Positions 30,409-30,487 of a stretch of 64,000 bases of DNA are shown here, piece after piece (within the stretch, counting starts at the first letter, position 1; each line of letters opens with the position of its first letter). The DNA comes from Candidatus Thorarchaeota archaeon (GTDB lineage Archaea > Asgardarchaeota > Thorarchaeia > Thorarchaeales > Thorarchaeaceae): NCBI GenBank assembly GCA_048882325.1, contig JBHLRS010000013.1:1-64000 (forward strand). Direction: 5' to 3'. The notes beneath the pieces were generated by a model. That model ran no database searches. It was given only the letters and a program-made list of their open reading frames with translations, and was not told the DNA's origin. Made by a program: the position numbers and the translations under genes.

Positions 30409-30487
30409 GAGACCGGCCGCTCGCAACGGCAGTCCTCAAACTCGGGCCCCAGTGGGATTTCCAATGTCATCATGGGAACTCGGTCTC
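30409..30487 (-). promoter_or_regulatory. SECIS element (eukaryote/Lokiarchaeota-like kink-turn) overlapping the selD stop codon
   Basis: GAGACCG-AGUUCC-C-AUGA-U-GACAUUGG-AAA-UCCC(ACU)GGGG-C-CCGAGUU-U-GA-GGACU-GCCGU(UGCGA)GCGGC-CGGUCUC: tandem GA/AG core, apical AAA, mini-stem, 7-bp closing helix. Confidence 0.7.

Follow-up and report, generated by a model that had tools for sequence, protein, structure and literature searches.

The window, the whole 64,000-nt stretch analysed here, carries on its minus strand a selD coding sequence (30470..31516) for selenophosphate synthetase, recognised from its translation, from the Pfam domains AIRS and AIRS_C expected of that enzyme, and from 62 orthologs in the same family that share 59-85% identity with it. 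The position of its start is uncertain, candidates being TTG at 31516, GTG at 31504 and GTG at 31495. The translation contains a single in-frame UGA, the Sec codon (31460..31462, minus strand), in the context TSHG-U-SCK; 61 of the 62 orthologs retain the G-U-xxK motif at this position, and the lone ortholog without a visible Sec codon is a selD cut at a contig end. The protein ends in ...IETEFP, after which come the stop UGA at 30470-30472 and, immediately 3' of it, a second UGA. Elsewhere in the source genome a tRNA-Sec (contig 26, 31242-31332, minus strand) adjoins a SepSecS gene (32055-33173, minus strand), and the presence of both makes Sec decoding plausible.

Further candidates for Sec decoding were sought in the same genome. 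Family searches for FlpD and the NiFeSe hydrogenase revealed no in-frame UGA inside the matched stretches, and two home-made kink-turn pattern scans for SECIS of additional selenoproteins returned 79 and 193 matches, mostly random, and were dropped. A survey of 400 genomes of the phylum met an in-frame UGA in each selD it found, and no Cys-type selD that could act as a natural control for loss of the element described below upon Sec-to-Cys replacement.

Downstream of selD lies a GTPase gene, inside which a weak box C/D sRNA-like match (sR30, 29568-29621, minus strand; 17 bits, E = 0.31) falls below threshold. Between the two genes, at 30377-30388 and about 20 nt past the SECIS, is a perfect 12-bp palindrome, AATTGCGCAATT, a unique 12-mer in the genome, whose core TTGCGCAAT is found at the equivalent place in several orthologs of the same genus; it may be a protein-binding site.

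The 3' end of selD overlaps an RNA element with the form of a three-way junction (30409..30487, minus strand, as are all parts that follow), defined by covariation and by its match to a covariance model, R1, that we built from the 62 family sequences. Its closing stem joins GAGACCG (30481..30487), which spans a Glu codon, a Thr codon and base one of a second Glu codon, to CGGUCUC (30409..30415), the 3' strand being recovered by RNAfold, RNAalifold and covariation; this stem is 99.8-100% paired among orthologs, and three of its pairs have changed in compensation, where the codon change is silent or replaces Thr by Ala. Inside it, the C-helix pairs UCC (30475..30477), within the Phe and Pro codons and 99% paired in the RNAalifold register, with GGA (30433..30435), placed by RNAalifold and covariation. 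A 3-nt bulge C-A-U (30472..30474), read off the sequence, contributes its U as the first base of the stop codon. The stop UGA (30470..30472) is also the UGA of the AUGA core (30470-30473), in which G30471 and A30470 stand opposite A30436 and G30437, the core 3' GA (30436..30437); there the A never varies and the G hardly ever, a single ortholog having AA.

Above the core rises helix II (5' strand 30461..30468, 3' strand 30439..30445), placed by RNAfold and by covariation as GAC.AUUGG/CCGA-GUU, a helix of 7 bp with A30465 bulged in this copy; all seven pairs have changed on both sides among the orthologs. Three unpaired adenines (30458..30460), evident in the RNAfold structure and corresponding to alignment positions A30 and A31, which are nearly invariant, separate helix II from an apical mini-stem, UCCC/GGGG with loop ACU (30447..30457), likewise folded by RNAfold; in the model-fitted alignment its cells are 81% paired and compensatory changes occur. 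The third arm of the junction is a 3' side hairpin, GCCGUU-GCG-AGCGGC (30416..30430), with the loop consensus Y-G-C-R-A, in which 87-90% of cells are paired and four to five of the six pairs show compensatory changes.

Folding of 30395-30500 (minus strand) with RNAfold recovered the helices drawn in the preliminary description of this locus: the closing stem, the side hairpin, helix II with the adenines above it, and the mini-stem. The element was no more stable than shuffled sequences (z = -0.10), so that the fold by itself proves nothing and the case rests on the orthologs. A better SECIS was also looked for elsewhere, and the candidate stood: folding suggested no second SECIS in the selD 3' UTR (whole 3' UTR against shuffles, z = +1.1), and in the 3.6-Mb source genome R1 finds one match only, at 30403-30488 (minus strand) with E = 2.9e-23.

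The comparison comprised 62 distinct selD 3' ends from one GTDB family, the relatives being metagenome-assembled genomes of Candidatus Thorarchaeota or Promethearchaeota. An alignment of such ends with a check for covariation had been proposed at the outset, and the signal obtained was strong. In alignments made with MAFFT (A1, A2), 87-90% of cells are paired, against 29-50% when partners are slid by one to three columns; 17-18 pairs have changed on both sides, and none of 500 shuffles reached the observed values. The model-fitted alignment of all 62 sequences gives 91% paired cells and 19 pairs changed on both sides; the model-fitted alignments (A3, A4) are biased towards structure, and those from MAFFT agree with them. 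The orthologs are related to one another, so these counts overstate independence, and the covariation signal is large despite that kinship. On this comparative evidence, the earlier proposals of a eukaryote-like Asgard SECIS, a kink-turn-like core and a three-way junction are borne out, and we regard the element as a genuine, conserved SECIS of known kind.

Pairing immediately beneath the core can be drawn in two registers. That of the preliminary description, UCC/GGA with a 3-nt bulge C-R-U, conforms to the simple kink-turn pattern and was returned exactly, UCC/GGA included, by RNAalifold from 28 orthologs; the one preferred by RNAfold for the single sequence, AGUUC/GGAC-U, is shifted by one base and leaves a 4-nt bulge. 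Both are paired in more than 92% of cells over columns that hardly vary, and covariation favours neither. In either register the stop UGA lies within the core. Two extra pairs, A30480-U30431 and G30479-C30432, would tighten the junction; the latter corresponds to pair 10-59 of the alignment (GC in 31, AU in nine and GU in nine sequences). In simple kink-turns of the Kt-7 and box C/D kind, a C-helix ending in C-G is followed by a 3-nt bulge, tandem G.A and A.G pairs, and then a non-Watson-Crick N.U pair. The element shares this pattern by sequence only (UCC / CAU / GA..GA / GGA), and the register with the 4-nt bulge fits equally.

That the stop codon is itself part of the SECIS core, as had been claimed from the single sequence, holds in every family ortholog compared. 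All 62 orthologs end in ...ETEFP-UGA, with this UGA forming the [A/G]UGA core: each stop is TGA, preceded by A in 35, G in 26, C in one and T in none. Of the long open frames of the source genome, 40% have TGA as their stop, and in 55% of these the preceding base is A or G. The window offers two overlapping AUGA motifs (AUGAUGA); since orthologs conserve the first of the two UGAs, which is the stop, and not the second, the stop UGA must be that of the core.

The codons leading into the stop bear the marks of both products. Within the coding part, compensatory changes take the form of GAG/GAA, ACC/ACU and ACC/GCC exchanges, each together with a change in its 3' partner. Codon choice is likewise strongly skewed in comparison with the remainder of selD: the terminal Pro codon is CCA or CCG in 58 of 59 sequences (37% in the remainder), the terminal Phe codon UUC in 61 of 62 (60%), the Thr codon ACC in 85% (22%) and the Glu codon GAG in 90% (51%). 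The compensatory changes and the codon bias together show that the last codons of selD encode both protein and RNA helix.

The distribution of R1 matches across family genomes follows that of selD closely. Exactly one match occurs in 67 of the 86 genomes; 64 of these 67 have a selD match at E <= 1e-40, and the R1 match sits on the 3' end of selD in all 62 genomes in which that end could be read. In one of the 64 (G362) only the N-terminal part of selD is present, at a contig edge, with the R1 match on a different contig. Two more matches lie on selD fragments at contig edges, and the remaining one is a relic. The 19 genomes lacking an R1 match also lack a selD match at E <= 1e-40. In a genome of the same genus that is 93% complete (G013), a good copy of the SECIS (68 bits; L113:525-610, minus strand, equivalent to G013:C9:7424-7509) directly follows the selD upstream region, accompanied by the last few selD codons; nothing remains of the gene body, and the query used revealed no selD elsewhere in that genome. 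This relic has the look of a recent deletion within the gene that spared the SECIS, or of an assembly artefact. A SelD-like domain of 35-39% identity was also encountered within open frames of about 750 aa that contain no stop (G001:C15, G002:C64, G012:C81, G032:C8 and G034:C4), mostly in family genomes having neither a Sec-type selD nor the SECIS; these frames may encode a fused SelD-like protein without Sec that replaces the Sec form.

Eight further Asgard families, represented by 22 selD copies, were brought into the comparison. Directly after 20 of the 22, R1 finds a three-way-junction SECIS at E <= 0.3 (18 of them at E <= 0.05), with matching closing stem, core, helix II, adenines, mini-stem and side hairpin, the loop of the last containing GCA or GCG; their model-fitted alignment shows compensatory changes in all 26 model pairs. 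In these families the selD stop, which may be UAA, UAG or UGA, falls 3-20 nt ahead of the core, mostly just before the closing stem. The preliminary description had offered the in-core position as the explanation of how a selenoprotein can end on UGA. No such explanation is needed: five of the 22 genes end on UGA with the stop 12-14 nt ahead of the core, so that a UGA-terminated selenoprotein gene does not require its stop to lie within it. In one of the other families, two loci (L066 and L070) have a closing stem that is also coding and a UAA stop 0-2 nt before the AUGA, which is a second, independent way for a gene end to overlap a SECIS. Many genomes of family f9, exemplified by locus L084 (G044:C5:26400-29300), carry two tandem Sec-type selD genes, each with its own three-way-junction SECIS.

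Since other families share the element with the stop placed before the core, the three-way-junction SECIS predates the arrangement seen in Thorarchaeota. The simplest history, and a likely one to judge from these sequences, would begin with a Thorarchaeal ancestor that lost its upstream stop, whereupon the frame would have run on (...IE-TEFP) to the first in-frame stop it met, the UGA of the core. Loss of one stop and capture of another would thus have produced the present arrangement.

For Asgard archaea, both the type of signal and its overlap with a stop codon have already appeared in print. From a survey of more than 400 Asgard genomes, Huang, Xiao and Zhang (2024; PMC11227280), in the main text, describe the selD elements as mainly type II and eukaryotic SECIS-like, with [A/G]UGA_GA as the type II core (GUGA_GA for selD of Thorarchaeia), an adenine-rich bulge [U/A][A/G]AA and a lower stem G[A/U]G_C[U/A]C; overlap of UGA stops with AUGA is cited there, in the main text for Lokiarchaeia only. 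Set against the type II definition as it appears in that text, the present element agrees at each point. The gene whose 3' end it occupies contains an in-frame Sec UGA, and the genome encodes Sec machinery; its core, defined as 5'-GA...[G/A]A-3' usually after AU or GU, consists of AUGA (30470-30473) and GA (30436-30437); its upper stem has seven pairs and one bulged A (7-15 bp with at most two mismatches in the definition); its mini-stem UCCC/GGGG and loop ACU fall within the 2-8 bp and 2-6 nt allowed; and its unpaired nucleotides, AAA 5' and C 3' of the mini-stem, stand at the lower limit of the 4-12 nt, starting with adenines, that are specified. The published type II selD form also shares an upper stem of 7 bp, the unpaired adenines before the mini-stem, a lower stem corresponding to the GAG...CUC found here, and the position at the extreme 3' end of selD. 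We see no essential difference from it, and the main text is without the side hairpin or a fixed ...ETEFP-UGA ending.

Mariotti et al. (2016; PMC4989117) had earlier described eukaryote-like SECIS elements in Lokiarchaeota, among them an element of its own kind for SPS (selD), which has an apical stem, and a VhuU.1 lokiSECIS whose AUGA doubles as the stop codon; structural constraints were said to preclude SECIS function at nearby UGA stops, and no SBP2 was detected. The idea of a stop within the core that is not recoded, implied to be new in the preliminary description, had been set out there already, and the explanation given with it is likewise published. The likeness to lokiSECIS extends to the AUGA..AAA..GA core, the overlap with the coding sequence and the extra apical stem of SPS. 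The difference is that their work concerned Lokiarchaeota, whereas in the other-family selD sampled here, which probably include the Loki-type, the stop stands 3-20 nt before the core, and in Thorarchaeota inside it. The AUGA_AA_GA motif, the kink-turn-like core, the mini-stem and a predicted long-range effect on a UGA upstream are shared with type II SECIS of eucaryotes; unlike them the element has a helix II of only 7 bp, an extra side hairpin, an overlap with the coding sequence, and a 3' GA that abuts the lower helix directly, in the style of a simple kink-turn. The Rfam SECIS families gave no match at E <= 10 (cmscan, permissive filters). The euryarchaeal SECIS, with its GAA_A bulge and G+C-rich upper stem, was rejected as a model, the conserved consensus structure being without such a bulge; in Methanococcus, a SECIS placed directly after the coding region keeps its function. 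Within the texts consulted for Asgard SECIS, in the case of the 2024 survey its main text, the in-core stop in 62 of 62 orthologs, the codon-level dual coding and the conserved side hairpin are possibly unreported.

Taken as a whole, the locus is best explained, and we hold this with high confidence, as a selD SECIS of the Asgard eukaryote-like type II, built as a tight three-way junction, that directs Sec insertion upstream and uses its own core UGA as the stop. The assignment of function follows from membership of the SECIS family and from co-occurrence with Sec-type selD; to our knowledge no Asgard SECIS has been tested experimentally to date. In the mechanism we propose, the element would direct insertion of Sec at the UGA some 990 nt upstream, and the Thorarchaeal reading frame would enter it by about five codons (TEFP) and end on the core UGA. 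A ribosome covers roughly 10 nt beyond its A-site codon. With the core UGA in the A site, the closing stem, C-helix and core would already be unwound, inside or behind the ribosome, and most of the helix II 5' strand would lie within the entry channel; no SECIS would be folded at that moment, and a release factor would be expected to win. It is on sound grounds, then, that the element is predicted to be incapable of recoding its own stop, since the terminating ribosome would have to unfold it.

Other readings of the same arrangement must be set beside this one. The overlap might be an adaptive regulatory device and not neutral compaction: terminating ribosomes would unfold the SECIS, heavy traffic on selD would lower Sec decoding, and SelD synthesis would be subject to feedback. 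Such a role would accord with the retention of the layout in all 62 family orthologs, with the strong dual constraint on the terminal codons, and with the existence across Asgard archaea of a SECIS form peculiar to selD; we nevertheless consider it improbable, because other Asgard families do without the overlap and because, once the frame is inside the core, RNA constraint alone fixes the UGA, so that its conservation needs no regulatory role. Still less probable, to a degree that makes it very unlikely, is that the terminal UGA is sometimes read as Sec or otherwise read through to yield a C-terminally extended SelD isoform. A UGA in a selenoprotein mRNA, in a genome with the full Sec machinery, invites the suggestion, and the second stop that directly follows the UGA in seven orthologs, the window included, could be a back-up; yet among the 62 orthologs the distance to the following in-frame stop ranges from 1 to 77 codons and no extension is conserved, and the sequence 3' of the stop evolves as paired RNA and not as codons, both of which argue against a functional read-through product, and the SECIS would not be folded while its own core was being decoded.

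It is also conceivable, though we give this scarcely any credence, that the element is no SECIS but some other kink-turn RNA, whether a box C/D sRNA or a regulatory site bound by L7Ae, or else a stability or terminator hairpin at the 3' end. The AUGAUGA of the window resembles box C, and Rfam returns a weak C/D-box match, GlsR4 (16 bits, E = 6.2); but AUGAUGA occurs in few orthologs only, the second UGA not being conserved, no box D (CUGA) is conserved, and the GlsR4 score is far under its gathering threshold of 70 bits. We rejected a box C/D sRNA on these grounds, the Rfam C/D matches reaching 16-17 bits against thresholds of 38-70. Against all such RNAs stand the occurrence of one element per genome, on the 3' end of a Sec-type selD wherever the flank could be read (the relic excepted), and the AAA and mini-stem, which are as in published type II SECIS.

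As regards the SECIS reading itself, a broader and more speculative proposal, which we think doubtful at present, is that the three-way junction, with its closing stem and Y-G-C-R-A side hairpin found in at least nine Asgard families, constitutes a selD-specific module that might recruit a factor of its own or give selD priority under selenium scarcity, and that in Thorarchaeota termination and SECIS folding would be mutually exclusive, coupling ribosome traffic to Sec decoding. In its general outline the locus confirms, for one more genome, that Asgard archaea use eukaryote-like SECIS set close against the end of the coding sequence or within that end, and to that extent adds little new. The findings should be helpful to gene callers, which truncate selD at the Sec codon, and the selD closing stem and side hairpin, being common to Asgard families, could help in designing a minimal Asgard SECIS for reporters. 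The last five codons of the gene are a clear example of simultaneous selection for protein and for RNA pairing, and Thorarchaeal selD offers a clean natural case in which one UGA must act as a stop and the bases around it make up the signal for recoding a different UGA.
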